Shown in pieces: positions 3,931 through 62,125 of a stretch of DNA of 64,000 nt. Below the pieces are notes generated by a model. It saw only the letters and a program-made list of their open reading frames with translations. It had not been told where the DNA came from and ran no database searches. The position numbers were made by a program, and so were the translations under genes. Numbering within the stretch: the first letter of the stretch is position 1; every line of letters begins with the position of its first letter. Source of the stretch: Malacoraja senta (taxonomy: Eukaryota); NCBI GenBank assembly GCA_038087875.1, contig CM075988.1, forward strand, positions 12,712,001 through 12,776,000. The letters are read 5' to 3'.

Positions 3931-3973
3931 TTCAACTATGGACGCTTACATATTGTGAATGAATCAATTAAAA

Positions 3974-11870: not shown

Positions 11871-11914
11871 GTGAGAGGAGATCTGACAAAACATGACATA
11901 TGCTAATTGCCTGG

Positions 11915-18438: not shown

Positions 18439-18604
18439 TTAGGAACTGCATATGCTGGTTTACACCAAAGATAGAGGATAGACACAAAATGTTGGAGTAA
18501 TTCAGCACGGGTGACATTTCGGGCCTGAGGAAGGGTCTCGACCGGAAACGTCAGCTTCTATCCTGAGATGCTGCCTGCCCCGAGTTACTCAAGCATTTTG
18601 TGTC
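18439..18604. mobile_element. Fold-back PLE pLTR element inserted in an old CR1 (about 18220-18690)
   Basis: Perfect 13-bp TSD tgccttcaaaaga at 18426-18438 and 18605-18617; ctgaggaagggtctcgaccggaaacgtc core. Confidence 0.88.
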
Positions 18605-18888
18605 TGCCTTCAAAAGAGAATTGATACGTTTGAGATTGCTCTGATAGAAGCTTAGGTGGCCTCAATGTCCCAGAAAATTTCATGATTCTGTATCCACAAT
18701 TGGGAATTACAAATTGATCATTGACAATTTATAACAGGCATTGTTAATGAGTGAGAAGTGTCAAAGTTCTTGAGCCTCATCTTGGGCTATTAGCCTGATA
18801 TTCTTCATTCAGCACAATACAATCATCATGATAAGGGATACCAAAGCTGTTTTCAAAGGAACAAATAAATTTAAAAAATCAAGATTTT

Positions 18889-22845: not shown

Positions 22846-23196
22846 TAATAATAACATGATCATGTATGTTGTCGTAAAAACTACTATCAAAAGCAGCAGA
22901 AATTTAGTTAAGACCTGAAAAAATGACAGCCAAAAATTATTTCTGATGTTGATCAATGCATTCATTGTACATTTGAATATTTAATAAATTAATTATTTGA
23001 GATGTTTTTCCACACTGATGTTATTACCATCAGATCTAACTTGGACAAAGATCTTACGGAGGTAGATTTGGAGAAATATTGAACCAAGATATCTCATTCT
23101 GATATTTATTATTCTTGAGTACATTTTGGTGGCTAATTATTTAAAATAAAGTGTTTCCAGTCTTTTGATTTGTGGATCCAGTTTAGAGTCTGTGGC

Positions 23197-23285
23197 AGAC
23201 ACAAAATGCTGGAGTAACTCAGCTGGATAGGCAGCATCTCTGGAGAGAAGGAATGGGTGACATTTCGGTCAAGACTCTTCTTCAG
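23197..23285 (-). mobile_element. PLE pLTR half element
   Basis: Family motif ending exactly at tcttcttcag (reverse complement of the CUGAAGA box). Confidence 0.85.
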
Positions 23286-25630: not shown

Positions 25631-26848
25631 TAAGATGATGCATGGTAAGATGATGCAAATGAAGTAACAATGAACAACTCCATTGGAGATGCAACTGGGA
25701 GTTATGCCAAAAGATCAAAGGTGAGGAAAAATGTGCTGAAGAAAGAAAGGTGCCCATTAGTATGGCAGTACAGAGTAGAAAGTAAAATTGCATCCATCAG
25801 AAATAATCCTATGGGTTATCTGATTTGAAAACCTGGAAGAATCACAGGAGCATTCATTTTGTTTTTCTGCAGTCTAAATCATTTTCAGAAGTCCCTTATT
25901 ACTTCTGTGTCACTTCCATTTATTGGTTGTTCCATAGCTTTCTCATCCGTATTAGAGTAAAATGCTTCAGGTGAAATGCATTGGCTTTGTAACTTTGTGA
26001 GTTAATTCCACTTGGTATTTATTTTTTCATTTTCTTTTTACCGCGAGCTTTGTGACCGACGGGGAAAATAAACTCTGTTTCTCATATCCCATCTAAGTAT
26101 GATTGATTACTGACCATCCGTTAGATAGATTTTGAAATGAAAGTATCTATTATTGTGCGTGTAGATGATAATCTAACTAATGTAACAGCTGCTCCTTATC
26201 TTTCCCCCACTGCTTGAGGGAAATATTGCTATTATTTATGCTTTTTCTATCTGAAGATTGTCGAGACTATTCTTTTTTCCATTCCAATCATATTCCATTG
26301 ATATTTCCACAGATAAGCAGCTTCCAAATAACAATGGAAAATAAGGTTGTTATATAGTTAGTTCTATGCAACCATTTCTTATAGTCGAGATTTATTTTGT
26401 ATGTATTTTCATTTTTCATCAACACAGCATGATCTTTGAATGCTGCCAGCTAGGCATGCATTCAACCACAATATGTTGGGGGGTTTTCTGTTGCTGAAAG
26501 AAATATTGCTATTTGCCTTCCCTGTATGGGAATGAAAACATGTTTACTCACGATTATTTTGTATCTTTACTTCTTATTGTTCAAGCGTGTAATCAAATTG
26601 TATGCAAAGGATATAATATGAATGGAATGCATTTTCATTATATTTTGTTCATACTGCACTGACCACAAAATGACCAGAAGGAAAGTGGATTTCCTTCGGA
26701 GAGCGGGCATTACTTGAAAGTCATCTTCTGCTGTAATAATAACTAGTCTGCTGAAAATGGAATTGGAGCAAGATCGCACAGAGTATTTGCTGGGCCATGT
26801 TCTGAGATTTAAACATTATTCTCCTGGATCAAAATGGACACTAAAACA

Positions 26849-26981
26849 TGTGTAGGAAGGAACTGCAAATGCTGGTTTAAATTGAAAATAGACACAAATG
26901 GCTGGAGTAATTCTGCGGAACAGGCAGCATCTTAGGATAGAAGGAATGGGTGAAGTTTCGGGGTGAGACCCTTCTTAAGAC
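26849..26981 (-). mobile_element. PLE pLTR half element
   Basis: tgtgtaggaaggaactgca...gtttcggggtgagacccttcttaaga. Confidence 0.85.
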
Positions 26982-29900
26982 ACATGTTAAGAGACGTGCA
27001 GATACATGTTAAGGTTGTGTGAAGTCATGGGTGGAATGATGGGCAATGGGCAAAGTATCTTCACACTAGAATTGCAAAATCCAGGCCTTGTGCATATACT
27101 CACATGCCCCAAAACACTCATCAGGGCCAAAGTTGGTTCAAGATGCGATCATCGCATTGAGGTTCACTGGAATGACTTCAACTTGTGTGGCTAACATTAG
27201 CCTTAGATGGGGTGATGGTGGAGTGGAGAGGAGGATGGTGGAAGTGAGTTGTTGTTATGGGGATAACAAGAAATCGAAGTAAGTGAGTGAGGCTAGTACA
27301 TCACACTTGTGAGAGAATGACAAATGCAATCAATTTAACTAGATTAAAGCAGCATTTTAGTGATACTGCCACACTGGTAATAAAGTTATGTTACTTTCAC
27401 CCCAAAGAACACCAACTAGGTAATACATTGTGTTACTGGTTGCCAGCAAGAAAATTGAAGCAAGATCTGCCTTCCAGCTTAATCATCTCCAGACCAACCA
27501 GGCCCTTAAATTAATGTATGAGTTTTCACACATTCATAAGCATAGTCATACAGCACAGAAACAGGCCAAACTCACACAGGCCGACCAAAATGCCCCATCT
27601 AAACTAGTCTCATTTGCCTGCAATTTGGCCCGGATCCCCCTTAGCCTTCCTATCCATGTACCTGTGTGAACTGCAAACTTACAGAGGAAAATTGTATGAG
27701 CTAAATTAAAAATATGCTGCATGCTACTTGAGGTCATGGTATAAATCAAGCACCCCTTGTGCCTAAATGTAGCTTCCAATCAAATTTAATCAAATCAGAT
27801 TTTAGATATTAGAACATTGTGCCTCAGAGAAGGATTTTCAGGCCTTGGAAAAAAATTCCCCACATCAACCAACATTTTGTTTGAAGGCATGCTGCTGGAA
27901 AATTCAGTAGTGCAGAGTCCCAAGCTTAATGAAATGGTCTTGTGTGAGAAAGTCCCTTGTTTTTGCACATTTCACCAATCCAAAACTCTCAAAGGAAATC
28001 ATGTAAGATTGTGATCAGGGCAGCATCGAGCTGTGAGGTTGTGGATGGTTGACTGACAGAGCCCTACTCCCTACTGATGTAGGGAGAGATATGGAATGAA
28101 TGGGCATCATGGCGCTGAGCTTAGAAGAGTGTTCATCCACCATAACGTCTGTTTCCGTGCTGTACAACTATGAATGGGTGAAAACGCATACATTCATTTA
28201 AGGGCCACTACTTCCTGGATGGTCTGGGGATGATTAAGCTGGAAGGCAGGTCCTGCTTCTATTTTCTTGCAGGCAACCAGTAACACAATGTATTTCCTAA
28301 TCGCTGTCCTTTGGGACGCAAGTAACTTAACTTTGTAACCCTAACAATATCACTAAAGCAGTATCACTAACATTGCTGCTTTAATCTTGTGGAGTTATCA
28401 GGTTAGGATAGGATGAAAGGGCTAGTCCAGGACTGGAAGTGTGATTAGCCTGGGGATGATGATGTGGAGGATGGAGTGAGAGGCAGAAGACAAGGCCCAG
28501 TACCAGAGAACGTGGAGAATGTTGGTAATCAGCAGTGGCACATGTTTCTATACCAGCAGTCTGAGAGTTTGTGGTTAGTTGAGAGATCGATAACCAGGGG
28601 GTTGGGTGGTGAAGTGGGCCTTGTTGTGGTTCAGCAGCTCGGTGGTCACTGGAGTGTAGTATAGGGATAGTGGTTTGTCGGGGTAGGAAGTGGGTGCTCC
28701 AAGAAATTACTGAAACAGACCACATAAATGCTGCAATGTCCAATGGGAAGGTATGGGTGTGTGTGCGTATGCATGGCTAAAGAGCCAAAAAGTGGCACTC
28801 AGGTGCACATTAGAACAAACAAAGTCATAGATATAATGGTCTGTACAGCACCTCACCATCTGCTGCAGCATTCATCAACTACACTCCCTATTCATGCTTC
28901 ATAACTTCAAATCTGTGTCACTCTTGAATGTGCCAGATGACTCACCATCACTCTCTCTTTGGGCAGAGTCACTACCAGAATCTGTTGGGGACATGCCATC
29001 GTTTAGCTGGCTCCATTCATCAATGCATCAGGGGCCTCTGGGGAAAATCACAAAATCGATTCAGCTTGCAATCAATCCTCCCTTTTTCTTTTATCTGTAA
29101 TTGAAATTGAATTGTCATGTTGAAAAGTTTTTCTGAAGCATGAAATTATTGTATAAATGTCCAGCAGCAAACCAAAAGGAGACAGAAAATGTTGGGGGAT
29201 GCTCAGCAGGTCAGAAGCATTAACATTGCTTAATATCCCCTACATTTTCCATTTTTTATTTCACGGCAGATTTTGTGTTGCTTTTTAACCAATGATGAGG
29301 TTAATGTACCTTTAAGTACCGCTCAAGAGAAATTAGCAATTGGCTACTCTCAATCAACTGGGTTCACTCACCTAAGCCATTGACATAGCTTGTAAATAGT
29401 TGAAACTTAAGTGGCTGAAGAATTTGTCAAAAATTGCTCTGACAATTTATATTCACCTTGATAAAGAAAGCTGTATTAGAAACTCCCAACTGTCTTGAAA
29501 CTGAGGTCATATCTCACTCCTTTGCGGGTTTTTTCCAAAGATTATTAGGTTGAGGCTGTAAGTAGCATGATTGACATTGTATATCTTGATTTTCAGCAAG
29601 GTGCAATATGCAGCTTAATAAAATAGAATCCAGTGGAATTAGATTTTGAGTTGGATAAGCAATTGGTTGCATTTGTATAAGCAGGAGCTTGTTATTAATG
29701 GAAGTGATTTTGCACAAGAACTATTTCAAGTGGAATTCAACAGGAACCGGAAGGTGCCTTTCAAAACCCTCAGATGTATGTGACGGCGGTGTTATCTTGC
29801 ATGTGGACAACAAACAAGTTTGCAGATTAAATTGGTGAGAAAAATAACATGGTGTGTGAGTCCCTGAAGACTCGTACACATTGACACACATCTATTACTA

Positions 29901-30365
29901 GAGGAGGTTTTGGTGGCAGATTGGCAGTGGAGCAGTCTGTCAAAGGTCTGTATGGCTATCTGTACCCTATAACTGACATGGGCGAGTGTAATATATCCAA
30001 GTTTGTTGATGGCATAATTCTAGTTATACGGGACACTGAGAAAGTTGATCCATAAAGGGTTAGTAGCTGCTTAGATCACAATAAGACATTGGTGAAGAAG
30101 TACAGTATCATACAGTTTGAAAAAATAAAGAAAATGTGAGTGTTTATCATGAGGTGTTCAAGGGGCATTTGGATATCCTTGTGTTATGATTAACAGAAAC
30201 AGATCATGTGTGCGAAGCACAAGTAGGTGGATAAAATACATGTTATCGTTTGGATCATTTATGGAAGGAAAATGTTCTAAATTATTTTGGTTTTATTGAG
30301 ATTCCACTTGGAATGGGAGGGTCTTGGTCTCCTGAGGATGCTTGAATGACATGCAGAGAAAGTTG

Positions 30366-30489
30366 TAGGAAGGAACTGCAGATGCTGGTTGAAACCGAAG
30401 ATAGACACAATATGCTGGAGTAACTCTGTAGGACAGGCAGCATCTCTGGAGAGAAGGAATTGGTGATGTTTCGGGCCGAGACCCTTCTT
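30366..30489 (-). mobile_element. PLE pLTR half element with TSD
   Basis: Perfect 12-bp repeat cagagaaagttg at 30354-30365 and 30490-30501; hammerhead-like core on the minus strand at 30465-30492. Confidence 0.88.
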
Positions 30490-30799
30490 CAGAGAAAGTT
30501 GAGTGGATTGATTCCTGGATTGAGAGTGCTGAGAAACATGTAGAGTAGAAAGGAAACATGTTCTCCGGTGTCAGGTGTGCCAGGGAATATCACTGAAATA
30601 TATAAAATTCTCAGAGCATTCATTCAGTGACAACCTGTTTCCTGGGATCCCAGCCTAGTATTAGGATCACAGGCTCTGGATATAAAATAGGCCACTGATG
30701 ATCTAGTTGAGTAAGCTCTGTCACTTGGTATGGTGAAGCTCTAGCGTTCATTGTCGCAGAAGGCTGTAGGTCCCTGAATGTATTTAACATACTAACTAT

Positions 30800-31014
30800 G
30801 TGTAAGAAGGAACTGCAGATGCTGGTTTTAACCATTGATAGACACAAAAAGCTGGAGTAACTCAGCGGGACAGGCAGCAACTCTGGAGAGAAGGAATGGG
30901 TGACATTTCTGGTCTAGACTGAAGAAGGGTCTCAACCCGAAACGTCACCCATGCCTTCTCTCCAGAGATGCTGCCTGTCCCACTGAGTTACTCCAGCTTT
31001 TTGTCTCTATCTTC
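30800..31014. mobile_element. Fold-back PLE pLTR element with TSD
   Basis: aacatactaactat (30786-30799) and aacatacaaactat (31015-31028); arms of about 70 bp. Confidence 0.9.
30919..30946 (+). ncRNA. Minimal (short stem III) hammerhead ribozyme core, putative
   Basis: CTGAAGA-A-GGGT[CTCA]ACCC-GAAA-CG-TC; palindromic ACGU; stem I not well formed. Confidence 0.6.
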
Positions 31015-31973
31015 AACATACAAACTATTTCCTTTGTGGGCTCTGGTGGAATCAAAAGATATGTGAATTAGCTGGAAAGGTAGAGCTGCAGAGAAACGGC
31101 AATAGTCATATATTTTCACTGTCAAAGAAAAGAAGATATGAAGTTGGAAAGCGCCATTGTAAGGAAGGAAATGTGACAACAAATTGAGATTTTAGGAATT
31201 TAGCCTTGTTTACTAGTTTTATGTTATAAGGAATATGTACTGATCACAACACCAGCTAGTCTCTGAAATGGAGACACAAGATCCTTTGTGCCCCCACTAT
31301 TATCTCAACCAAAAGATACTATCCCAATCAATGCTGCATAATATCAATATAATATAAATGTAATGATCAGTATCAATAGGTTTATTAGGTTTAATTTCCT
31401 GTAAAGCTTGTATCTGACAAATCAGAGGAGAACATGTGCTGCCTATTGAGCCATGATTGAATCTTGTTTGACCTCATCAGGATCCAGTATTGAGTTTGGA
31501 ATGAGCGACAACATGGGCAACATTAGAAAAATTGAACAATTCACTTGATAGGATGATGAAAGGCAATTAAGCTCTACAGTAGACACATACGAATCTGTGG
31601 ATGCTGGTATCTTAAGCAAAATGGAGGCACCATCTGTGGAGGGAATAACCAGGTGATATTTCAGGTCAGCACTTTTGTTTTGACTGATTTTTTTTTTGGG
31701 GTGGGGGGGAGAGAAATCTGGAGAAGAGAGTTCCTAGCTGTATTGTTTAAGTTCTCCAGAATCTCTATTTTCATCATCCTATTAGCATTATACACATAAC
31801 ATTATTGTATAAAATTTAAATGTTATGCTGAAAATAATGGTGAAATGTTACATAAAGCAGATTGAACAGCAGTTGCCAGCAACCATAGATGTACAAAAGT
31901 CAGAATGTTGCTGAAGGATTTACCTTCACTGCTGAATAATTGCCCTGTTCTTCCAAAGGCTTCTCCATGGCAT

Positions 31974-33495: not shown

Positions 33496-33794
33496 GTAAG
33501 ATACTACAATTTGTTGTCTATGTGTTTAGCAGGAAAAAGTAACAAGGGTAGAGCCTCTAACCTTTTTGATGACACACAGTAATGACAAAAGCATACAGAA
33601 AATCATATCACATGGTGCAGAAAGTTTTTAAAGATGTACATATCGAACAACCCAAGACAGATATCTGCCCTACCAAGTCTGTGTCAATGTTACAGACCTG
33701 TGATATATTGCTGAGAGGAAAGGGGTGTAGTCATTGAGAGAACACGGTGTCCTCGCTTTATGTAGAAGATGCAACACTGCTTTAGATTTCTCAT

Positions 33795-33983
33795 GTGTAG
33801 GAAGGAACTGCAGATACTGGTTTAAATCGAAGGTAGACACAAAATGTTGGAGTAACTCAGTGGGACAGGCAGTATCGCTGGAGAGAAAGAGTGGGTGAAG
33901 TTGTCTGAAGAAGGGTCTCGACCCGAAACATCACCCATTCCTTCTCTCCAGAGATGCTGCCTGTCCCGCTGCGTTACTCCAGC
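33795..33983. mobile_element. Fold-back PLE pLTR element with TSD
   Basis: ctttagatttctcat (33780-33794) and ctttagatctctcat (33984-33998); core ctgaagaagggtctcgacccgaaacatc at 33905. Confidence 0.9.
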
Positions 33984-34634
33984 CTTTAGATCTCTCATTA
34001 CTGCTGTTCCTAATGCAGAAAAGCCTACACTCACTCCCTGGCTGTTTGGTGAAACGCAAAAAAAACTGACTGCACAGGCACCATAAAATTTCACAACTTT
34101 ACAAGCCTTGTTGTATTTGTCAATAACTGTATTCAAAATCAATTTTATAGTGATAAGACATATCCAGCAACTCAAATGTTCGTGCGTGAACATAAATATT
34201 TTATTTGAGTGCTCTCCTGAAACCCTGATCAATAATGAAACCGATGATTTATTTCCCCCTTGCTCCTTGGTCCATTCAGTTGCAGCAGCAGTTTGTTTTG
34301 AATGATCACTCTCTCTTAACAAGGAAGCAGGGTGGTACTGATCATATTTGGTGCAATTAGGTCCAAAGGCACATCTGAAGGAATATTTATGTGTCTCATG
34401 GTGGTGGTGCTGGAGGTAGTGGAGGAGATGTGGCATTGAATGCGGTAAAGGCTTCATCTTGATGCTGGTGATAAGGCTTATCTGAAGGGCGACTTTAAAC
34501 TTATTTGTGTAAGTCATTCTCCCTCTCCAATGCTGGTCACAAGTCCAGATAAGGAGGTTAGCTTTAAGAAGAGTATCTTTCTGTAAATTTAACCAATTAA
34601 AGTGCACATCCAAGGAGCTAATCGGCTAATTTTT

Positions 34635-34728
34635 AAGATAGACACAAAATGCTGGAGTAACTCAGCTTATCTGGCAGCATCTTTGGAGAAAATAGATTGG
34701 TGACGGTTTGTGTCGGGACCCTTCTTAG
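34635..34728 (-). mobile_element. PLE pLTR half element
   Basis: Family motif. Confidence 0.8.
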
Positions 34729-35644: not shown

Positions 35645-36969
<1,325 letters not shown>

Positions 36970-38040: not shown

Positions 38041-38145
38041 CTTCAGAACTTGAAGAAAGGTCTCAACCCAAAACGTCACCCATTCCTTGATCTCCAGAGA
38101 TGATTCCTGTCTTGCTAAATTACTCCAGCATATTGTGTCTATCGT
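38041..38145 (+). mobile_element. PLE pLTR half element
   Basis: ttgaagaaaggtctcaacccaaaacgtcacccattcc... Confidence 0.8.
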
Positions 38146-38538
38146 CAGGCTAACTGTGTTGTGTGGGTCAGTCAGCTCATTCTTGTGGATCAGTGCAGGG
38201 ATCTATTAAGATAAGGGTAAATCACAGACCTTGAACAGTGATTCCAATGATGCTGGTGTTGGGAGATGTCGTTGGAGTGGACGTACATTTGTACAGGGGA
38301 AACTGCTGACCCAGGCCTTTTGACCAACAGAACTTGGGGACATTAGGTGAGGTGCACACCATGAAGAATCAGCCAGTTGGGAAACAAACAGATTGTTGCA
38401 AAAATGTGCTGTGCTGACTTGCACGTATTCAAGGAAGTGGCCTGGGGAATGTCTGTAATTGGGACTTCAACATCGGATCGGGTCACGACTGGTGCCAGGG
38501 AAAACTGCAAGTCAAACTATGGATGAAGCCTCCTGCTC

Positions 38539-38851
38539 GTTTAGATTTTGGTTTAGTCTAGAGATACAGCACCAACTCGGGTATTTCGGCCCACCGAGTC
38601 CACGCCGACCAGTGATCTCTGTACTCCAGCACTATCCTACACACTAGGGACAATGTACCATCTTTACCGAAGACAATCAACCTACAAACCGGTCTTCGGA
38701 GTGTGGGAGGAAACCGGAGCACCTGGGGAAAATCCACACAGGTCACGGGGGAACATACCAACTCCGTACAGACGGCACCCATAGTCAGGATCGAACCTGG
38801 GTCTATAGTGCTGTAAGGCAGCAACTCTGCCGCAGTTCCATCATGCTACCG
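38539..38851 (-). mobile_element. HE1/V-SINE-type SINE
   Basis: Tail, core and head. Confidence 0.9.
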
Positions 38852-40067: not shown

Positions 40068-40135
40068 TTGTGGGAAAGGTAGCAAGAGTCATAAAGCTGT
40101 AGAGTATGGTAAGTTCTTCAGCTAACTGACAAAGT

Positions 40136-40270
40136 TTGTAAGAAGGAACTGCAGATGCTGGTTTAAACCAAAGATAGACACAAACAGCTGGAGTAAATCA
40201 GCGGGACAGGCAGCATCTCTGGAGAGAAGGAATGGGTGACTTTTCGGGTCAAGACCCTTCTTCAGACTGA
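40136..40270 (-). mobile_element. PLE pLTR half element
   Basis: Ends at cccttcttcagactg; imperfect flanks actgacaaagtt/actgatgaagtt. Confidence 0.88.
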
Positions 40271-40279
40271 TGAAGTTGC

Positions 40280-40445: not shown

Positions 40446-42054
40446 GTGGATAATGCTTCCATGAAGGCTTTATCTGAAATGTTGGGAACATTACTGAATT
40501 GCACCCTAAATTGGTCCTAAAATGCACCATTCATTGATTTCAATTCATTATTTAAATATTGGTTGGACTCTTCCGTTCATGTCTTCCACTGTCTATATAT
40601 CAGTTAATTCTCCCTGCATAAAGGCACGCACCAGTCAGATCAAAGCAGGTGAATAGAACCAGTGATTGCCATGACAGATTGTGTGCTACCGCCATCTCTT
40701 CTTTGATGAGTTGATCAAAAACATTTTTCACAAACCTTGAATGCGATCTTTGTAGGGCTGTCATGTTTTTTGTGACGTGACTTGCAACATGTAATGAGAC
40801 TCTCTTGTGATGGCAATGTTTCTTGAGGAGTTTGTGATAACCCTGCATTGAAGTGAGATGCCAAAATATTCACGATCAACAAACAAAATAGCTGTGCACC
40901 AAGCTTTGACTTGACTGCCATTATTATTGCGTGATTCAGCCTGGAGGCAATAAATGTTACCTTGCAAATCGCAAATTGCAGTTTGTGAAATGGCACTTTG
41001 CTGTTAATTTCCCTGTGAAATTCTTAAAGTTGCTGCATTTTCTTATTAATTGTTCATTAAGTCAGGTAATCAATACAGCAGCCATTTTGACCATGTCATG
41101 ATTGTTAAGGATTGCTAATTAATCTTTCTAACCATGTAAGTGAACAAACCTTTTCTTGCTTTCAAGTTGTAAATTTCTTAAAAAGAAAGATTAAAATAAA
41201 ACTTTTTTTGTTTATTTTACCCTTACTTTGTTTATTGTTTTTCTCTCTGAATCTAATTCTTCTTCCTCTCTCCTTATTTCTAGTTCTACATCAATTTAAA
41301 TCTTCCTCTTCGTCAGTACTTGATCATTAAATCTCATTGTCTCCATTGTTTAGCCATGTCAAGATTACTTGTTTCTATTGCTGCACCATTATTGGTCGAC
41401 ACTTTGGGCTTTTTTTAAATGGCAGATGAATATGCGGGAATAAATAATAACAGCACAAAGTGGTCTGTTCCAACAAACTCTGCCAACATATTTTCAACAA
41501 GGGAAATGGGTGAATTGAAATTGGACCATGATAGGATTTATTATTACCTGCACCTTCTTCTCTCATCTTGGGTTTGCTGTTCTGTATATGGACTGATAAA
41601 GGACTATGTGCTATACCACAGAGAAAGGGAACTTCTTCTCAAAGGTGAAAATATAAATGATGAGTGTCCAAATCAAACTGCTCAAGGAAGTGAGCAGACT
41701 CAGCAGCATTTGTGTGGTCTCAACACAAAATGTTGACAATTTGTCCTCACCACAGATACTGTTTAACATATTCCAGCTCCACAGTATCTACACTCTTATT
41801 TCTCCAAAATTATGAAGGTGCCCTACGTACTTGAGATTCAAAAGTTGTGCAAGTTATTGCTGGTGCTGCAACAGTTTTAACTTCTGAGATTATGAAACTT
41901 CATAGTTCCATTTCGGTACATATGACAATAAAACATTCTCGACTCTCTCTTTCACAATCCTATGCTCCCCTTCTAGGGATTGGACACGATGGCTAAAGAG
42001 TTGTTTAATGGAAGTTAACATTCCTTGATGTCTTAAAAGAAGACTTTCATTCTG

Positions 42055-44409: not shown

Positions 44410-44790
44410 AGATATCTAGAATCAGGGAGTATAGATTAAGGAGAAAAGGTAAGATTTAGAAGGGATTTCAGATAGGTTTTTCTTTATCCAGAGGGGAGTT
44501 GAAATCTGGAACACACTGCCTGGGAATTATTTAAATGAGCACTTGAAGTGCCACAGAACCGAGTTACAGGCTGAAGCTGGAAATCAGGGAAATGTATTCA
44601 CAAGGAGCTGCAAGGAGCTGCAGATGTTGGTTTCCAAAAGAAGACACAAAGTGCTAGAGTAGCACGTCAGGTCAAGCAGCATCTCAGGGGAACGTGGTCC
44701 ATTTTCTCTCAAGTTGCAGCCTTGCTGGAACGTAGGATTTGCTACTTAATGGCCAGAATGAACACAACAAAGTGCTTGCTTCAGTTCTTC
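44410..44790 (+). mobile_element. Old CR1 3' end with nested PLE fragment (about 44599-44725)
   Basis: ccagaggggagttgaaatctggaacacactgcctg; insert caaggagctgcagatgttggttt...agacacaaagtgct. Confidence 0.65.
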
Positions 44791-46719: not shown

Positions 46720-47490
46720 ATGAAGAATGGGCAACAGACTTTGACCACAACTAATCATTTTCCACAATATGCTCTTAAATGCTATCCTCTCAGCCAGACC
46801 AAGGTTAGGGTTCCTCTTGACTTCATCTTCCACCACCTCAACCTTGACATTGAATTAACCTTCATGCCTTTCACCACCTTCAAGGAGATTACCTGCATAG
46901 CCTCGCCTCCCCTCCCAGTGCCCTGAAGTGAACTGAACAATTCCCTTTGCATTTCTCTGATCTGCTCTTCCATCTTTACTAACCATTCAGCAATTCATTT
47001 ACACTTCAAATCTAGTTGATTGCATTCCACGTTCATGATAAATCCCCCTCTATCTTGGAGAATCAAAATGTCAATTGATTGATTGCTTTCGACAGCACAT
47101 CCATTCAGTTCATAGGATCAAGCCTATTTTCCCTGTTGTTGTCATTTTATTTCTCCATTCCACTCTTTTATTTTCTTTCACTCTCTCAAACGGCCTCATT
47201 AATCTGTTAGCCAGACAGTGTAGTAATCAACATTATCACCTGGACAATCATAGACTTTTCCTTTCAGACTTTCCTCTCGTATTTAACCCTCCCTCATCCA
47301 CTCTGGAATTTAAAACTAATTAGTTTTTTTTTTTACCAGTTTGGACAAGAGATCTGCAACTTACAATGTTAACTATGTCTCTCCACAGATGCTGCCTGCC
47401 TAACAACAGCTTTTCACTGTACCTCAGTATTCCTGAGTGTTCCCAGCATTTTCTGTTTTTATCTCGGGTTTGCAGCATCTGCAGTTTCTT
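46720..47490 (+). mobile_element. Old PLE remnant (linker, GIY-YIG, 3' end), right arm
   Basis: KVRVPLDFIFHH (cf. RVPLVLTFHP), PLYLGESKCQLIDCFRQHIHSV; pLTR tail ctctccacagatgctgcc...cagcatctgcagttt. Confidence 0.7.
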
Positions 47491-48919
47491 TTAACTTTCA
47501 ATCGCTGGCTGCAGTTGACCTCACTTTAAGTCCCACATTGATAAACACAAGACAAGGTATTATGTTAGAATGCCTCGGTTATTAATAAAATAAAAAACAG
47601 TTAGTATTTGAAAAGTAGTTAGTTTAATTGTGAGGTCTAAATCACTGTGACAGTTTAATACTCGGTATTTTATGATGAAATTAATCTGTGAGAAAATAAT
47701 ACTAAGCATTAAAGGAAAGAATTTACCTTGTAAATGTGTACTCACTCCAGGGAAGTTGATAATTTGCTGTTCTGCACATTTTTTGTTTACAAATCTAATG
47801 CATAAGTTTATGAGCTCATAAATTCAGAGTAAAAGGTGCAGAACTCCATGGGCTAAAGCTGATTAAAGTTTTTCTCTCTTATAAGTCTTTGCTCCACTCC
47901 TGATGTTATTTAGATAATCCACAATAGCAAAGCTAAATCTCTTTGCCTTCATTTTGTTTATTATCTCGGCAGTCTGAGTTATCATCCTAATCAATGGGTA
48001 TGAACCTTGGCTGTTAGCCACTGCTGACTTTGCAGATCTTTATTGTGTAAAATATCCCTCATAACTCACTGCTACCTCCTTTCGGAGAGCCTTTCCCAGC
48101 AACAGGACAGCTCAAATTAATCCTTCTACAAAAATGTGGTAATAGTTTGTCCCTCGTCAGCTTCTATTCCCCAATGATACAATTCTTCCTGGCGCTGTCA
48201 CAAGATGGAATGTGTTAGTGAGTGAGGATAAGCTCCAGAGAATTGCTTGACAGCCCAAGAACTTGCCCACCTCCACCGGGTGCTTCAGTAAGTGGAGAAT
48301 TAGGTTATTAGCGTTTTAATAACGGATGAGCCCTTTGCTGAGCAACAGTTGTTTGGAATAGTAATCCAGTATGTGACATTATTTCCCCAAAATGAATATC
48401 CAGCTCTGCTTTAATGGCTGGTCGACAGGTTGTATCCTCTCTAAGTTCTCTATCGCTGGTTCATTGGATGTAGTTATGAATCAGGGAAGTACTTGAGCAT
48501 GGAATCGTGTATCGTGGAATATACAACATTTGAAGCCGTGTTTTTTTTGTGTTTTTGAATGGGTGGGGTGAGGAGAGAAGAAAAAAATTCAATGAATCTG
48601 CTGATGGAGTTGGCTAAGTTAGAGTTGAATTCAGACAACTCAGTCGGCAGATTCATTGATGTATTTTTTTCTACTCTTCTCATCAAGTCTTGCTTCCTCT
48701 TGACCAGAATTTGCTGCCTCTGCAATGTCACCCACACTTAGCACCTGCATAAAGACCAATTGATTACTTAACTGATGTTCATTCTTCCGGCTCTGATAGA
48801 CTTTTCCCAATTGAAAATAATGAAGCCCTAAGCTGTGTAACATTGTCTTGCAAGTGTGACAATGTTCAGAACAAGTCCTATCTGAGAAAGAGCTAGGGGA
48901 AAATAAAAACACCCAGGAA

Positions 48920-49122
48920 AGGTCATAAGGGTAGAATTAGCCCATTCGGCCCATCAAGTCTACTTCACCATTCAATCATGGCTGATCTATCTCTCCATCC
49001 AAACCCCATTCTCCTGCCTTCTCCCCATAACCGTACTAATCAAGAATCTGGTTGCTCAACACTTAAACTCCCCCTCCCCCTCCCATTCCCACGCAAACCT
49101 TTCTGTCCTGGGTCTCCTCCAA
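48920..49122. mobile_element. CR1 tail (minus) fused to a short PLE endonuclease fragment (plus, about 49049-49122)
   Basis: CR1 tail motif followed by VAQHLNSPSPSHSHANLSVLGLL. Confidence 0.75.
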
Positions 49123-49695: not shown

Positions 49696-50534
49696 AAGCT
49701 TTGAATTGATACTGGGTAAATGCTAAAAGTTCAGCATGTAGCTGTAGGCACGCTGCACCAAGTTCTGGTCCTATTGTAGACAACCCAACTTACTTTATGA
49801 TAATAAACTAATTTCCCTCATTGATTAGGTTGGAGTAAAACTATTTTCAATGATATAGTGCTCAACAGAGGTTCCCCAACTATTGAAATATTGTGGGGAT
49901 TGATCAAAACCGTGGCCCCATTTTTAGGCTAGGAACTTCAGAGCAGTGGTTTATGGAGGTGGAGATGTGTGCATTAATGGAATGTACAAAAACCAGAGTG
50001 GATGGTGTGGAGAATTAGTTCCGCAGGGCACAAGGCTAGAGGAGGCTATTGGGAAAGGCCAATGAGTGATAAAAACTTGTTAACGTGAGAGAATTTGTAG
50101 CAGTGCAAGCCAAGCACAGGAGTGAGTGCCAGCAAAACCTAGTGAGGAAACAAGATTGGGAGCAAAGTTTCAGATAAGTAATGGGAAGATTGTGTTTGGA
50201 GTTGTCAAGATGATAGACATGGATTTGAAACCTATCAACTGGGTCTGCATGCGATCCTTATCCCTCCATTCAAGCCATAAAAGCTTTTTATTTGAAAATA
50301 ATTGTTTCCAAATGTCCAATGAATTACTGTAAACCACCTCCTCACAATTTCAGGCAATCATTAGTCAACAGGAGCTCATGGTGTTTAGTTATTTACAATG
50401 AAGGTGCCATTCCTTTCTGATTTCACTCTTCACCATTTTATGCCTCGAGTTTATGAGGCTATATGGCTATTTAGCAATGTGGGGTGTTAATCGTTTTGCC
50501 ACTGACACATGCACGTTTGCTAGCTTGTTTCTAA

Positions 50535-52118
50535 ATGAACAACAAACCACTTCACCGTCTCAGGGTACTGGCTGCACATGTCATTGGATGCCTTCTGAGA
50601 ACACCACTGCTTGGGAGGTGACGACACAAATTGTCAACATTCCTGTTTCATTCTGTGAAGGATGAGTGGTTTCAACCCATAAACTTGACAGCCGGAATCA
50701 CCACAAACACTGGTGCTAATGGAGAAGTCTGGACAGGAAGTTGATTTTCACTCAGTGAAAATTGGGGACAATTCTCTGGGGAAGCAGAGACCAGAAACCT
50801 CCATTGTCAGAGTAAGGCGAAACGCAAATCTCATATTTTGCTTGGGCAGCTTACTGCCCAGTGGTATGAATATTGATTTCTCTAACTTCAGGTAGCCGCA
50901 GCATTCCTTCTCTCTCCATCCCTCCCCCACCCAAGTAGCCCTAATCTCTTGTTTGCACCCTACAAACAGCTACCAATGGCCTGTTTCCTTTAACATTGGT
51001 ACTGTTTTGCATATCTTTCATTCATTGTTCTTTATCTCCCTACATTACCATCTATATCTCTCGCTTCCCTTATCCCTAACCAGTCCGAAGAAGGGTCTCG
51101 ACCCAAAATTTCACCCATTCCTTCTCTCCAAAGATGCCGCTTGTCCCGTTGAGTTACTCCAGCATGTTGAGCCTATCTTCAACCAGAAACCATTGCTGGA
51201 GTTGCAGTTCGTTTCTTCAACCATTTGCTCACTCCGTTAGCAATTTAATTTGTGTGAAGCTCATTGAAATGAATATAATGCAGGAAAATCTTTGTCTGAA
51301 TAGATTTTCATATTTTAATATTTGAGGAGCACAAAGGCCACACTTTCAATCAGATGGATTATTCTAAATGTATTTCACTTTTTTTTCCCCCACACTGTCC
51401 ACCATTCTTGCCCAGTCTCTCGCATGTAACTTAATTTATTGAAGATATTTGAAATAGGATGATTTAACAAATAGAAAGGTATAATATTGAGCTCTGAAAG
51501 TACTCTCAATTTACCAAGTAAAATTGAAATGGATTATCCAGGAGAAGTTGTGCAATAATCTAGCAATCAACTCGAGTCAATATTGATTAAGGTGAAGGAG
51601 ATCCAGTTGGATCAACTTGTTTGGAGGAAATGGTTTGAGTAAAGTTTTTAGTTTGTTTTATTTTATTATTGTCACTGCCCAGTGAACTTTTATGACTTTG
51701 TTGGCTCCAGAAACGTGCACTGTCTAGGTGAGGTCTGCAGTATGATTTTACCGGGTTGTATGCAAAACAGCCCACTGGGCAGTAAGCTGCCCAAGCGAAA
51801 TATGAGATGATGTTCCTCCAATTTGCGTTTCGCCTCACTCTGACAATGGAGGTTTCTGGTCTCTGCTTCCCCAGAGAATTATCCCCAGTTTTCACTGTGT
51901 GAAAATTAACTTCCTGTCCAGACTTCTCCATTAGCGCCAGTGTTTGTGGTGATTATCCCAGCTGTCAAGTTATTGGGTTGAAACCACTCATCCTTCACAG
52001 AATGAAACAGAAATGTTGACAATTTGTGTCGTCACCTCCCAAGCAGTGGTGTTCTCAGAAGCCATCCAATGACATGTGCAGCCAGTACCCTTAGACGGTG
52101 AAGTGGTTTGTCGTTCAT
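50535..52118. repeat. Inverted duplication, arms 50535-50864 and 51772-52118
   Basis: Arms are reverse complements over about 330 bp with a few substitutions and two indels (14 and 3 nt). Confidence 0.95.
50799..51215 (+). mobile_element. PLE 3' fragment: endonuclease C-terminus, 3' UTR, decayed hammerhead and pLTR tail
   Basis: LHCQSKAKRK..LIFCLGSLLPSGMNIDFSNFR* followed by ccgaagaagggtctcgacccaaaatttcacccattcc at about 51085; links the short family to a PLE ORF. Confidence 0.9.
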
Positions 52119-52149
52119 GTGTCACTATACCTGGGTACATTTGACAATA

Positions 52150-55090: not shown

Positions 55091-55369
55091 TGACTTAATC
55101 TTCCATGCAACAAATGATCAATCAAATTTTAAGTCGGGTACGTCTGTGCAAATTGAGGGCACATTAATTAAGGCCTGGGAAATTACTACATTCAACAATA
55201 AGAACAAACTGAAAATGTAAAGCATAGTCAAATTCAAAACAAATGCAATTAGGAAAATGTCATGAGCTTGATGCTGAACTGTGAGCTAAGTCCACTTGAT
55301 TACATTCCAGAGGTGTTGTTTGCCACATTTGGGGATAGTTGCCAGCCAGAGGTTAGGTAAATAGGATAA

Positions 55370-55515
55370 ACAAGGAACTGGAGATGATGCTTTACAAAAA
55401 ACAAATGCCAGAGTAATTCAGCAAGTCTGGCAGCATCTCTGGAGAAAATGGATTGGTGACATTTTAGGTCAGGGCGCTTCTTCAAATTAATTGGGGTGGG
55501 GGTGGGGGGAGAGAT
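55370..55515 (-). mobile_element. PLE pLTR half element
   Basis: acaaggaactggagatg...ggcagcatctctggagaaaatggattggtgacatttt. Confidence 0.75.
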
Positions 55516-56597
55516 CCTGTTCATAGAATTTGTGCTCTAGATCTGACCATGCCTGCAGCCTAGCCAACTCAGTAGATCTGCAATATTGGCTCCTCTCTGT
55601 TCATTTAAGAAATTGTGCAACTATGTCCTGTTCAAAAAGAGCATGATTAAGCCATTCTAGTTGATCACGACCTTATGTCTATCCTTCAATATCAAAAAAT
55701 ATGATGGGAAGTGTTGTGGCCAGAGCAATAAGTCACACTTGCACCAATCATCAGCTTACTGATTTCCAGTTAAGAGCAGATATGAATGTGCAATAAAAGT
55801 AGGTGTTACCAATGATGCCAAGAACCGAATGAATTAATACATTTTAAAATCACCAACTTCATGCCCAGTTAGTGTTAGCATCCTTTTGGTCGAGGCTTGA
55901 CCAAAGCCTGTATCAGATTATGATTTGTGACAAAGTTTACACCATGGAATTGGACTCTGAACCAGGTGTTTCAATGTAAGGTTGCAGCCTCAGGACACAC
56001 ATGAGAAGACGTTTCTTTACCCAGAGATGATGAATGATTGGAATTCTCTACCCTAGAGGGCTCGGAGGTTCAACCGCTGAGTGCATTTGAGGGGAAAGAT
56101 CACTAGATTCTCAGATATTAAGGTTAGCAGGGGATCTGGGGTGTTATCATGCTTCACCACAGTAAAGCAGCTCTGGCTGAAGCAGACATGACAGATAGGG
56201 AGTTTGTTGAAGGTGCATTTACACAGTAAAAATAATATTGAGAATGAATACTTCCCACCTAATGATAATAGCTGTGATCTTTTCTCAGGAGACTTTTAGA
56301 AGTTCTGATTTGCAGATAATATCACTAATCCCTTTTTGTTGCTAAAATGTAGGAAAGTGACCAATGGGAGTGAAATCTCATCGATCACTTAAAACACTAA
56401 AATCATGTAATCAGTTTTTGCTTGTTGTTAATCCTACTCGCTGTCTAAGATATCGAAATAAACACGCACTCTCAGCTAGGAAGAAAAGGAATTAAAGAAT
56501 CACAGTTGCTTACAGCAAAGAAGGCTGTCAGTTAGCCAATTAGGTCAGCTCAGTGTTTGTTCACCATCAAGATGCATCTACTGTACAGTTTTTATAC

Positions 56598-56880
56598 TTT
56601 ACTTTGGACTTTAGAGATACAACGTGGAAACAGGCCCTTCGGCCCACCGAGTCCACGTCACCCTGTATACTAGCACTATCCTACCCACTGGGAACAATTT
56701 GTAATTTACCAAAGCCAATTAACCTGCAAACCTGCACATCTTTGGAATGTGGAATGAAATCGGAGCACCCGGTCACAGGGAGAACCTACAAACTCTTTAC
56801 AGACCGCACCCATGCTCAGGATCGAACCCGGGTCTCTGGCACTATAAGGCAGCAGCCCTGCCGCTGCGCCACTGTGCCTC
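56598..56880 (-). mobile_element. HE1/V-SINE-type SINE
   Basis: Tail, core and head. Confidence 0.9.
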
Positions 56881-58657
56881 CCTTATCAGCCTTGCGCCAC
56901 GAACCCTAGTCAGAAATGAAGATTCAGAGTACGACTTATGAGGTTATTCCAGTAAATTTTGCTGACCACGGTACAAACCAAGAAGAATTTTTTTTTTCTA
57001 AAAAAAATCTGAAATGAAGCAGAAAATCTTTGAAATGCTCAACCTGTCAGGTAACATGCTTTAAGGCTTTGGAATAGGAGGGAATTCCTCACTTTAGAAA
57101 TTAGCCGAGAGCACAAAATGATACAAAAGAGGCCAATATTGGAGATGCTCTGAGTTCAAGAATTTTAGAGAAGGTTCAGGTAACAGATAATGGGAGGAGA
57201 AAATCTCAGAGGGATTTGAAAACCAGGATGTGTTTTATGAAATCAGGCCATTGCCAGACAGTAGCCTGTCGTAAATTAGGTTTCAGGTTACACTCTGCAC
57301 TGTAAAGATGAAAACAAACACAATGAACGCTGGAAGTCTAAAAATATAAATTGAGAAAATGCCTCAAGCAAAGGTCAACATCTGTAAGAAGAAAAGTCAG
57401 GTTGATACTTTTGATGGTAATTGGTCCATCTCCAATGAAAACTTTTCCACTGGCATCTTGAATTTTCACGATGTATTTCTAAGGTATATCATTTTTGCAT
57501 AATCTGTGCACTATTATGCATTCACAGAATTATTTTATTTTGCAAGGTTCGATCCTTAAAGATTGGTGAACAGAAATAACTTAGGAAAAGGCATTTCTGC
57601 TCCAAATATTTCATTACTGTGAGCTTGTTAGATTCCACTGAAAGTATTAAGTGGGAATTTAATATTGCAGCCACTGCTCTAGAATAATAATAGTGATGAG
57701 AACAAAATATGCCACCAGATCACACTGATGGCTTACTGGTAATCTGCAGGAACTGTTGCTTGAGTGGCTTTTCAGACATCCACCAATTTTGCCCTGCAGC
57801 AAGGAAATATGGATCACGCTGGATGTCAAATGGTAATGTCGCTGACTTAATTTCTTGTCACTAGACTTTGCATCACGTTTAGCAGCAATTCCACACAGAA
57901 ATAAGCTGGAGGACCAGTGACACTTCACCTCCGGGGCCATTGGCTTTATGTCACCATTGCTGGAGCATCTTGCACAGGGGTTGGGTGTCACCAATCCTCA
58001 TGTTGCAAATAATTGAAAATGAGCAGAGATTTTTCACTTTGTATGTTAAATATATTTTTAAATCGTGATTTTTTAATGTCGCATCGGTATGGTAATTTTA
58101 CACTAATTTCTAATGAAGTAAATGAATAATGAACTAAACTAGTCGAGTTTACAAGCCGTTGAACTGCTTCTGAATGTCCCTGCTCCCCGAGAAACTTTTG
58201 CAACTAGTGAAGGAGGCCGTTGACAGAATGAGCCATCTGCAGGTTATCGGGGATGTGCCCCATGTTTCCACCACCTGCAGCTTATCGACCGCCCATGACT
58301 CAGGGAGCAGCCACTGCAGTGATACCACCAAAGCATCGTGGCTGCAAAAGACAAACCTGACAACAGACAGCTCACCAGAGTTGAGTGCGAGGCACATGCT
58401 GGATCAGGCATGATCCATCCCTTTAGTTTACTCTATGCACACCCTAATTGTTCCATGTATTTCTTCACCTGCAAAAAGGGGAAAACAAAACCTTCCAAGT
58501 GTAAAATGTTTCCATTTCCCTATGTACTGGCTGCATTCCACCATTTCAGTGTCCGGAGCCACATTACATATGCACCAAGAATCCTTGCAACACTCTGGAG
58601 CTCAGTGTTTGCAGAATTTATATTAATATTAAATGTCCATCATTAAAATAATAACTA

Positions 58658-58760
58658 GAAACAAGGAATTGCAAATGCAGGTTTACAAAAAAAAACAGTG
58701 CTGGAGTAACTCAGCAGATCAGGCATCATCTCTGGAGGACATTGGTAGGTGACGTTCCAT
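58658..58760 (-). mobile_element. PLE pLTR half element
   Basis: gaaacaaggaattgcaaatgcagg...gtgctggagtaactcagc...ggtgacgttcc. Confidence 0.75.
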
Positions 58761-58969
58761 TTATTATAATAATAATAGTGATGGAAATTTGGGAAGTACT
58801 TGTTTTGTCATTATGAATGCATCCACAATGACATCTGTTTCTGCATTGAGGCAGTCCCGATATAAATCTTTAAGTAGTACTCTAGAGAAATAAAATATGA
58901 CTAAACTCTGCATTCTGTTTATATAAAGAGTATACACAATGCTGAATAATTAAAAGCTTTTATATTCCC

Positions 58970-60220: not shown

Positions 60221-60516
60221 TAGAACTGCAGATGCTGGTTTATACCAAAAATAGACACAGTGCTGGCGTAACTCGGCGGGTCAGATAACACCTCTTGCGA
60301 AAAAAGATGTCCCAATCTTATCTCTAATTTCCCTTATCCGTTACCAGTCTGTATCTCTCATTTATTTCCCTTATCCCTAACCAGTCTGAAGAAGGGTCTC
60401 GAACCAAAATGTCACCCATACCTTCTCTCCAGAGATGCTGCATGTTCTGCTGAGTTACTCCAGCTTTTTGTGTCTATCTTCAGTTTAAACCAGCATCTGC
60501 AGTTCCTTCCTACACA
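60221..60516. mobile_element. Fold-back PLE pLTR element with longer sense arm
   Basis: Antisense arm 60221-60310; duplicated tttcccttatcc..accagtctg; core at about 60386; ends ttccttcctacac. Confidence 0.85.
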
Positions 60517-60526
60517 AGTACAATGT

Positions 60527-60601
60527 ATGGACAATGGATTTTTGACAAATGTTGCGGTCCTGCTATTTGGACCGCAACATTTGTCTAAATCCATTGTCCA
60601 T
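60527..60601. repeat. Near-perfect 75-nt hairpin
   Basis: atggacaatggattt(tt)gacaaatgttgcggtcc-tgctattt-ggaccgcaacatttgtc(t)aaatccattgtccat. Confidence 0.95.
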
Positions 60602-60620: not shown

Positions 60621-60873
60621 AGAAGGAACTGCAGATGCTGTTTAAATTGGATAGACACAAAATGCTGGAGTAACTCAGCAGCTCAGGTAGCATCCCTGGA
60701 GAAAATGGACAGGTGACTAAAGTCTGAAGAAGTCTCCTTCAGTCTGAAGAAGGGTCCCCCCGACCTGAAACGTCACCTATGCATGTTTTCCAGGGGGTGC
60801 TGCCTGACCTGCTGAGTTACTCTAGTATTTTGTGTGTTTCCTTGGTAAACCAGCATCTGAAGTTTCTTGTTTC
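60621..60873. mobile_element. Fold-back PLE pLTR element
   Basis: Inverted arms; centre agtctgaagaagtctccttcagtctgaagaaggg with a duplicated box. Confidence 0.85.
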
Positions 60874-61343
60874 AACTCTATCTCTTTTTTTTGTTCTCGA
60901 TTCTCCTCTGCTTTTTGTGTTGACCTGGAATGCAGTCCCGTGAATCGGCTGCTGTTCACCTGTGACTAAAATGCTAAACAGTTGAGGTTAATTTGTTCCA
61001 ACCTGCTGGGCTGGTGGTAAACAATCTGGAATGGCAGATTTTCCATTCCAAAGTCCACAAGACCATTCTACACTTAAAATGTCGTGATTGGGATCACTTA
61101 ACTGAGAGCAACAATAACATAGAATGTACCAGCTGCTGGCAATGTTATTATGATGGCTGGGGGTGGTCTGAAAAATATACTTTGTAAAAAATTCCAATCA
61201 AAGCATACCTGAAGGAGAGTTTTGATGGAACCAGAGTTTCCTGAAGGCATAGCGATTTGTGAAAAGGATAATAATAGACTTCAAGGTGATATCGGCAGGC
61301 TGGTGGAACAAATGGACAGGCTGAGCAACATGAAGTGTTGCAT

Positions 61344-61539
61344 GGTACACAAATATGCTGGAGAAACTCAGCGGGTGCAGCAGCATCTATGGAGCGAAGG
61401 AAATAGGCAACGTTCTGAAGAAGGGTTTCGGCCCGAAACGTTGCCTATTTCTTTCGCTCCACAGATGCTGCTGCACCCGCTGAGTTTCTCCAGCATTTTT
61501 GTGTACCTTCGATTTTCCAGCATCTGCAGTTCCTTCTTA
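61344..61539. mobile_element. Young fold-back PLE pLTR element (second subfamily) with perfect 17-bp TSD
   Basis: aacatgaagtgttgcat at 61327-61343 and 61540-61556; about 70-bp near-perfect inverted arms. Confidence 0.93.
61415..61442 (+). ncRNA. Minimal hammerhead ribozyme core, putative
   Basis: CTGAAGA-A-GGGT[TTCG]GCCC-GAAA-CG-TT. Confidence 0.6.
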
Positions 61540-61782
61540 AACATGAAGTGTTGCATTTTGGGAGGAAGAATGGGAAGAAGTAATATGAACTAGAAACCGG
61601 AAACCTAAAAGGATTTCAAGAACAGAGAACTGGGAGTAGATGTGCAGTTGTCAAGGGTTGCCGGCAGGTTGATGAAAAACGATGCTGTGATTAAAGAACA
61701 GAAACATAAAGTGCGAGAGCAAGGAAATCATACTGGACCTTCACAAAGATACTTAATCAGCCATAAGTGGAGTACTGTGGCA

Positions 61783-62125
61783 ACGCAAGGAGCTGCAGAT
61801 GCCTTGGAGTACAAAGTACTGGAGTGACTCAATGGGTCAGACTGCATCTCTAGAAGATATTGATAGGCGACGTTCTGGGTTGGAACCCTCTTCAGACTGG
61901 CTGCAGTAGAGGGGAGAAAACTGGAGATGAGGTGGGCACGGGACAGAGCCTGTTAAGTGACAGGTGGATACAGGTGAGGGGGATTTTGGTTAACAGATGG
62001 GTGGACAAGGCTAGAGGTGAAAAGGAGAAAAAATGTCACAAAAGGAGACCAGGAGACAAAAGGGTTTCAGATAAGGAGAGAAGAGGAGGAAAATCTAAAG
62101 GCGGGGGGGGGGGGGGGGGGGGGTG
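61783..62125 (-). mobile_element. PLE pLTR plus purine-rich (antisense) 3' UTR
   Basis: caaggagctgcagatgc...ggcgacgttctgggttggaaccctcttcagactg followed by a G/A-rich UTR and poly-G. Confidence 0.75.

Follow-up and report, generated by a model that had tools for sequence, protein, structure and literature searches.

Abundant short inverted insertions in a 64-kb window: a miniature case of the known Penelope-like element insertion pattern

Insertions of endonuclease-bearing (EN+) Penelope-like elements (PLEs) with inverted pseudo-LTRs (pLTRs) have been described for Pen2a_Av and others (PMC3846280), set out as a scheme (PMC8557442) and reported for D. virilis Penelope (PMC2377424). They show head-to-head pLTRs, a target-site duplication (TSD) around the insert, a tail of 30-40 nt on one end, microhomology or a palindrome at the junction, and solo pLTRs, and the copies described here resemble them in each respect. 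The inverted pLTR with its one-sided tail and TSD had thus already been published (PMC3846280; PMC8557442), and junction palindromes and minimal or opposite-strand hammerheads are likewise known (also PMC8969392). What we report is a real and abundant miniature case of this known pattern. It differs in that copies in the window (the whole 64-kb stretch of DNA analysed) mostly lack an ORF between the arms, in that the arms are 20-135 nt long and number 36 in 64 kb, and in that one arm nearly always has the same start, immediately 5' of the hammerhead, a feature not described in those parts of the published PLE accounts that we consulted. A literature search, outside which most subscription papers and supplements fell, found no description of short Penelope hairpins in sharks or skates, or of Penelope twin priming.

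Biochemical data exist for PAc, a Poseidon element of Anolis carolinensis (PMC11167929), whose protein nicks and extends both target strands in vitro and is predicted to form a dimer, with the tail lying between two internal reverse transcriptase (RT) start sites. As in the module described below, the tail of PAc is delimited by two ends lying about 100-140 nt beyond the hammerhead, and targets are A+T-rich. PAc differs in belonging to the Poseidon clade, whereas here the endonuclease relatives carry a Neptune/Nematis linker and the data are genomic footprints only. Minimal hammerheads of metazoan PLEs (PMC4209133) share with ours the conserved core, the unpaired base before helix II and a palindromic 1-bp helix III, and are also mostly single dispersed motifs; opposite-strand pairs 100-700 bp apart were already noted there in Schistosoma. 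Ours differ from them in a helix II of 4-5 bp and a helix I of apparently 2 bp, in that a full core survives on just one arm in most hairpins, and in that cleavage is predicted. Finally, non-LTR retrozymes (PMC7229834; 10.64898/2026.07.22.740005) are similarly pLTR-related, non-coding and dispersed as monomers, with a type I hammerhead and larger TSDs. Retrozymes give circular RNAs and are arranged in head-to-tail arrays, every unit of which has a hammerhead, whereas our copies are solo or head-to-head; no head-to-tail array with intact hammerheads in consecutive units occurs among our 28 loci, and head-to-tail module joints elsewhere in the genome are a small class among the joints listed.

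To count module copies, an nhmmer profile was built from six copies in the window, and arms were counted at E<0.01. The search gave 45 matches at E<=10 and 36 at E<0.01, against two in the reversed window (best E 1.7). The 36 arms, a 20-nt arm at 36588 and a weak arm at 41674 were grouped by hand. The module, about 135 nt long, thus has 36 arms at 28 loci, 18 of them solo and 10 head-to-head (8 clear, one with the 20-nt arm, one weak), and the arms span 3,625 bp or 5.7% of the window. This agrees with the original prediction of about 25 copies of a module of roughly 130 nt, some ten of them hairpins. The loci other than those treated separately below are as follows.

3768-3943: decayed head-to-head pair, possible TSD 12/14
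16531-16758: head-to-head pair, TSD 10/11, tail on sense arm only, arms non-nested
18426-18617: head-to-head pair with non-nested arms and a 13-bp perfect TSD, tail confined to the antisense arm
30786-31028: head-to-head pair with non-nested arms, TSD 13/14, tail confined to the antisense arm, fold z -21; a hammerhead core is retained on the sense arm at 30919
33780-33998: head-to-head pair, TSD 14/15, tail on antisense arm only, arms non-nested
36575-36735: sense module joined to an inverted arm of 20 nt, the turn falling on the 7-nt module-start micro-palindrome, possible TSD 11/13
41674-41765: weak decayed pair, nhmmer E 0.054 and 0.0011, fold z -1.9
60223-60517: head-to-head pair, tails on both arms, no TSD found, sense arm running about 40 nt into the 3' UTR
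60621-60875: head-to-head pair with a complex junction and a tail on each arm, hammerhead core at 60744, no TSD found
30354-30501, minus strand: solo module, positions about 4-8 to tail end, flanked without a gap by perfect TSDs of 12 bp
40125-40277, minus strand: solo module, start to tail end, TSD 10/12
58642-58775, minus strand: solo module from position about 27, TSD 12/13
61786-62100 (far end approximate), minus strand: module of a second sequence variant, preceded by about 200 nt rich in pyrimidines
892-989, plus strand: solo copy
2007-2110, 2922-2957, 7648-7719, 15583-15667, 23176-23285, 26848-26981, 31625-31685, 34624-34728, 38051-38153, 44611-44691, 47365-47491, 55369-55485: further solo copies

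The identity of the module is best seen at a longer copy, where it occupies its native place.

50799-50895, plus strand: about 36 decayed codons from the C-terminus of a PLE GIY-YIG endonuclease, with stop codon (tblastn)
50896-51080, plus strand: pyrimidine-rich 3' UTR of about 185 nt joining the endonuclease remnant to the module
51081-51220 (may end at 51181), plus strand: module, 3' end of the longer copy

In a tblastn search of the window, 50799-50892 was matched by P0008 (E 6e-6) and P0002 (E 1e-4), two of a set of relatives bearing RT or GIY-YIG sequence; the remnant has a 14-nt deletion, and its stop is at 50893-50895. Because the module lies after this stop and a 3' UTR, and carries a minimal hammerhead and a tail, we identify it from sequence as the pLTR end of a PLE, probably a Neptune-like one. 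EN+ PLEs have a C-terminal GIY-YIG endonuclease with a CCHH motif upstream of the pLTR; here a decayed C-terminal endonuclease end is linked to the module, and 5' truncation, an inverted head-to-head copy and TSDs of variable length were all found. The derivation from PLEs that had been predicted is thus borne out by the endonuclease remnant, the hammerhead, the tail and the inverted copies with variable TSDs. The description of the module at 50799-51215 as the 3' end of a GIY-YIG ORF holds in part: it does follow an endonuclease remnant, but this stretch contains no ORF and no GIY or YIG motif, just the decayed codons.

A fuller decayed GIY-YIG domain at 11513-11896 matches proteins having both RT and GIY-YIG, and a HMMER search with it returned 66 relatives. 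Ten of these were scanned with Pfam, eight giving a GIY-YIG match, mostly just under the cut-off; three of those scanned (P0026, P0042 and P0062) are RT-plus-endonuclease proteins. Relatives P0002, P0008, P0011, P0026, P0042 and P0062 contain the linker Cys motif CX2-5CxxC which, lying between RT and endonuclease, defines Neptune/Nematis (PMC8557442). The motif is not readable in the remnants of the window itself, and the clade assignment is indirect, as the 11513-11896 remnant has no linked module detected. Neither Pfam on the short endonuclease remnants alone (nothing relevant) nor a word-based protein search with a 91-aa remnant (21 candidates, none significant) was informative. With three RT-bearing relatives tblastn detected no RT remnant in the window, which also holds no full-length element, so an autonomous source has to be inferred. 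Decayed PLE GIY-YIG remnants lie at 11513-11896 (minus), 46988-47140 (plus), 49042-49119 (plus) and 51771-51851 (minus), the one at 46988 preceding the 47365 module by about 220 nt.

At its start the module consensus has a complete type I hammerhead of the minimal kind. A descriptor search found an intact core in three of 23 arms (0.02 expected per shuffled window) and a broken one in the other 20; Rfam gave no hammerhead match. The clearest of the head-to-head insertions has the following features.

61327-61343, plus strand: left TSD, 17 bp, 17/17 identical to 61540-61556
61344-61414, minus strand: antisense arm, module positions about 27 to about 97, without the tail
61414-61539, plus strand: sense arm, module positions 4 to about 130, with the tail
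61415-61442, plus strand: minimal type I hammerhead core, complete by descriptor match
61511-61539, plus strand: PLE tail, on the sense arm only (alignment; limits from alignment and contig ends)
61540-61556, plus strand: right TSD (match to 61327-61343)

The perfect 17-bp direct repeat brackets an insert of 196 nt, whose arms overlap by 1 nt at the turn (base 61414). The putative core comprises the core boxes, the unpaired base, helix II and a 1-bp palindromic helix III, with a predicted cut after 61442. Folding gives a main stem of 69 bp (-138.8 kcal/mol, z = -20.3; 0/200 shuffles equally stable), and both the 17-bp perfect TSD and the antisense-sense hairpin of about 70 bp proposed for this locus are therefore seen. 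In the modelled fold the 3' half of the hammerhead would be paired into the long stem. The label "ribozyme-bearing" accordingly suits the consensus, where the hammerhead is real, but poorly suits individual copies, with an intact core in just three of 23 arms and its 3' half apparently buried in the stem. The arms are 97% identical over 65 columns and have seven non-consensus bases in common. Since the best outside arm (82%) lacks these seven bases, both arms, judged by their sequence, derive from one young variant and not from other hairpins. A shared origin of the two arms is apparent for this locus only: in seven of eight pairs tested the partner was not the closest arm (rank 2-12), a result that is uninformative for those seven.

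The unequal arms of the hairpins are explained by the tail, since the module has two alternative 3' ends about 36 nt apart; this difference is the PLE tail. Twenty of the 36 arms reach it, 12 stop at about positions 87-111 and four earlier. To view the same ends genome-wide, whole-genome contigs of four runs (three organisms) were aligned to 60330-60570, with 60382-60517 as module reference, and each run contributed 110,000-195,000 placed contigs. Peaks of loose ends occur at 60382 and 60515-60517, and the best-supported joints use 60477-60482, 60516 and 60382-60385; joints were judged from the 15 best supported (356 others lay outside these), and contig counts for joints are lower bounds. In each of the five pairs that combine two long arms with the best TSDs, the tail is on exactly one arm; two pairs (60223-60517 and 60621-60875) carry it on both and have no TSD. 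The commonest strand-switch joints are tail-to-tail, from position about 99 to the tail end (at least 53 contigs for 60480/60516 in run X1); new copies may insert at the tail start of older ones.

TSD lengths vary from 10 to 17 bp. The five duplications quoted in the original prediction (17, 13 and 12 bp; 13/14; 14/15) are each exact, and there are six more candidates of 10-14 bp. As a control, the left flank of one locus was compared with the right flank of another in 250 mismatched pairs: boundary-anchored repeat scores of at least 8 occur at 9/28 loci against 6/250 such pairs, and scores of at least 11 at 5/28 against 1/250. For one of the nine loci scoring at least 8, the repeat at 40114/40258 is probably spurious and the 10/12 match at 40125/40266 the true duplication. 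About 17 of the 28 loci have no convincing TSD. TSDs are 70% A+T, against 59% for the whole window. The copies at 40125-40136 and 40266-40277 differ at one dinucleotide, CA versus TG, which fits independent decay of one CpG. Near the long copy there is a perfect 10-bp repeat (50790-50799 / 51182-51191; chance 0.003), given which this copy may end at 51181 and not 51215; the 30 nt past 51181 also resemble a decayed tail.

Short insertions with inverted arms and TSDs recall MITEs or other class II DNA transposons. The variable TSD length and non-identical termini exclude these, as do the many solo arms with TSDs of their own and the continuity with a PLE endonuclease remnant, and we give such an origin practically no credence. 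That the copies are not MITEs had been predicted, and the 10-17 bp TSDs and the termini differing by the tail agree.

All nine hairpin junctions that could be mapped in the window differ at base level. Each inversion point is thus unique, the pattern that the original prediction had tied to independent truncations of autonomous PLEs as opposed to a replicating hairpin family. On the module, the junctions at 33903 and 61414 lie no more than 1 nt apart, and the two belong to different sequence variants; junction hot spots therefore exist. The 15 best-supported joints listed include no head-to-head joint, being tandem or tail-to-tail, though short-read contigs span hairpins poorly. As the nine junctions differ, 61327 is a variant of its own and no head-to-head joint is found among the best 15 listed, the sequence comparisons indicate that hairpins most likely form anew with each insertion and do not belong to a replicating family. 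A ribozyme-bearing family copied as a whole hairpin and seeding dsRNA through the genome would fit the high density, the similar insert sizes (135-215 nt), the strong folds and the two nearly coincident junctions; yet the nine differing junctions, the varying side of the tail, the separate variant at 61327, the lack of a dominant head-to-head joint among the 15 listed and a fold that would sequester the hammerhead make it highly improbable. The non-autonomous family replicating as hairpins that had been proposed is thus not supported by the junctions or by 61327, whereas the other proposal, minimal PLE insertions, finds support in the PLE-end module, the tail, the TSDs and the unique junctions. 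A non-autonomous single (non-hairpin) module is possible.

We consider it probable that autonomous, endonuclease-bearing PLEs of Neptune-like type gave rise to the copies as their shortest insertion products, anew at each insertion. RT would start at module positions of about +99 and about +135, and nicks staggered by 10-17 bp would yield the TSDs. Extension from one nick would leave a solo module; extension from both would give two cDNAs meeting at their 3' ends and joined over a 0-7 nt overlap, and hence a head-to-head hairpin in which, as a rule, just one arm has the tail. The hammerhead would be a passenger, a cis part of the pLTR that neither sets the junction nor replicates the hairpin. 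Drawing on the PAc results, this two-cDNA scheme seems the simplest single model. Two of its weaker points are the pairs with tails on both arms and no TSD, and the loci without a convincing TSD.

The relation between the two arms bears directly on the number of cDNAs. In four of the nine pairs the arms are non-nested, one having the tail and the other the hammerhead start; four, including 61327, are nested, and the ninth (3770) is ambiguous. Because each arm of a non-nested pair holds sequence that the other lacks, copying of a single cDNA is insufficient there unless a tip was trimmed later, and these pairs suggest two cDNAs per insertion event. The nested pairs, 61327 among them, fit snap-back copying equally well, which counts against our preferred reading. 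Indeed, under the same de novo PLE origin, the second arm could have been made by self-priming at a short palindrome, followed by one-sided tip trimming; the 5' boundary discussed below would then be a palindrome hot spot (the module-start 7-nt palindrome or that of helix III) and not an RNA start. The insertion at 36588 turns exactly on the start palindrome, and self-priming is favoured there; the pair at 30799 has a 4-nt overlap at the same palindrome, and the helix III palindrome adjoins position 27, where two antisense arms and two solos begin. Earlier work (PMC3846280) had also proposed palindromes at inverted junctions, as well as self-priming that uses an antisense template. However, 10 of the 18 copies starting at the boundary are solo, the tandem joints listed share this boundary with no fold-back, the solos 30363 and 40135 directly abut their TSDs, and four of nine pairs are non-nested; as a general account snap-back copying seems unlikely.

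The 5' boundary itself is well defined. Among the 23 arms that reach the hammerhead start, 18 have their first base in a stretch of about 7 nt immediately 5' of the core and show no upstream homology to three long references; the remaining five are the three long references and two arms set aside for their C-rich flanks. Solo copies make up ten of these 18, and two of the ten abut their TSD directly. Even truncation predicts 1.1-4.4 such arms (P 8e-20 to 2e-9, a crude hazard estimate with three upstream references), and about 3-5 of the 23 arms extend upstream. In all four runs, the head-to-tail joints listed return to the same four bases, 60382-60385. Summed contig depth upstream, which we do not take as copy number, is 7-19% of that at the module start. 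Not all of this drop is truncation, because other variants, whose UTR differs, contribute C-rich sequence to the loose ends before 60382 (agreement 0.35-0.38).

As to its cause, the boundary sequence is a 7-nt palindrome, preceded by a polypyrimidine tract and AG, and we take it to fit the initiator consensus. We rank an RNA start first, the palindrome second and a splice site last, as a minor option. Under the two-cDNA scheme, most cDNAs would stop just 5' of the hammerhead where the template RNA begins, at an initiator-like start; this is its weakest step, to which we give roughly equal chances of being right or wrong. Hammerhead cleavage was rejected as the source, as no arm starts at the cut site (position 33) and tandem joints return to positions 1-4. 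With respect to a spliced template, no shared upstream exon was found in the 18 flanks or in the loose-end consensus. At the long copy, a donor-like sequence (50890-50896) lies at the endonuclease stop and a polypyrimidine tract with AG (51060-51084) before the hammerhead; both resemble the splice consensus, and all of the 3' UTR might serve as an intron of the pLTR. An intron end in D. virilis occupies the corresponding place, with a polypyrimidine tract and AG before the hammerhead (PMC4209133; PMC2377424). A partial tandem UTR duplication of about 35 nt is present at 60307-60381, its first unit also ending at the module-start palindrome.

The fixed ends also allow the module to be seen as a unit in its own right. 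More specifically, the 100/135-nt unit could be a defined product with one end at an RNA start just 5' of the hammerhead and the other at either RT start, made in huge numbers and perhaps re-mobilised in a SINE-like manner, with the hairpins as direct footprints of a dimeric PLE protein that carries out two reverse transcriptions from opposite nicks; this we put forward tentatively, as a rather unlikely reading. A still less probable variant would be that the single 100/135-nt module is a non-autonomous, SINE-like or retrozyme-like PLE derivative mobilised in trans, its transcripts arising from a promoter within the module or from tandem arrays, with hairpins as two-sided insertions. Both module ends are fixed, just about 3-5 of 23 arms reach upstream, upstream depth is 7-19%, and there are exact head-to-tail joints, such as 60516 to 60382 with at least 40 contigs in run X1. 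Moreover, pLTRs suffice in cis (PMC3846280), retrozymes are pLTR-derived (10.64898/2026.07.22.740005) and the D. virilis promoter is internal (PMC2377424). Ordinary autonomous sources are nevertheless favoured, because both main sequence variants exist in the window in long as well as short forms. The window also contains no tandem module array, the start of the tandem unit is not the hammerhead cut site, unlike that of a self-cleaved retrozyme unit, and the core is broken in 20 of 23 arms.

With about 6% of the window made up of PLE end fragments, repeat finders could mislabel them as MITEs, SINEs or microRNA precursors. In Rfam, two hairpins gave microRNA-like matches below the gathering score, which reflect long hairpins only. 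The short, TSD-bounded events form a large natural data set for nested versus non-nested arms, tail side and 5' boundary, and permit a countable test of how PLEs make inverted copies and tails. If the defined-product reading is true, there would be hundreds of thousands of events, from which the PLE integration cycle could be read in genome sequence. Hairpins, if transcribed, would be a large source of intramolecular dsRNA, and with an internal promoter single modules could be re-copied like a SINE or retrozyme monomer (10.64898/2026.07.22.740005; PMC7229834).

Several other repeats were observed in the window. An inverted duplication (50503-50864 / 51772-52127; 91% over 347 nt) takes in about 265 nt of non-PLE flank and the 5' junction of the long copy, and its minus copy (51772-52127) keeps the 14 nt lost from the plus copy; it therefore postdates the PLE insertion and predates the 14-nt deletion. 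Between two module pairs lies an unrelated 33-bp hairpin (60527-60601, z -14) with no other clear copy in the window, and an inverted repeat of 127 nt, 87% complementary, is found at 27376-27502 / 28214-28340, its halves 711 nt apart. A second abundant interspersed repeat of about 300 nt (families D6-D13), unrelated to the module, has copies at these positions, among others.

9219-9510: copy of the ~300-nt repeat
13459-13674: copy of the ~300-nt repeat
15133-15417: copy of the ~300-nt repeat
38542-38844: copy of the ~300-nt repeat
56595-56875: copy of the ~300-nt repeat
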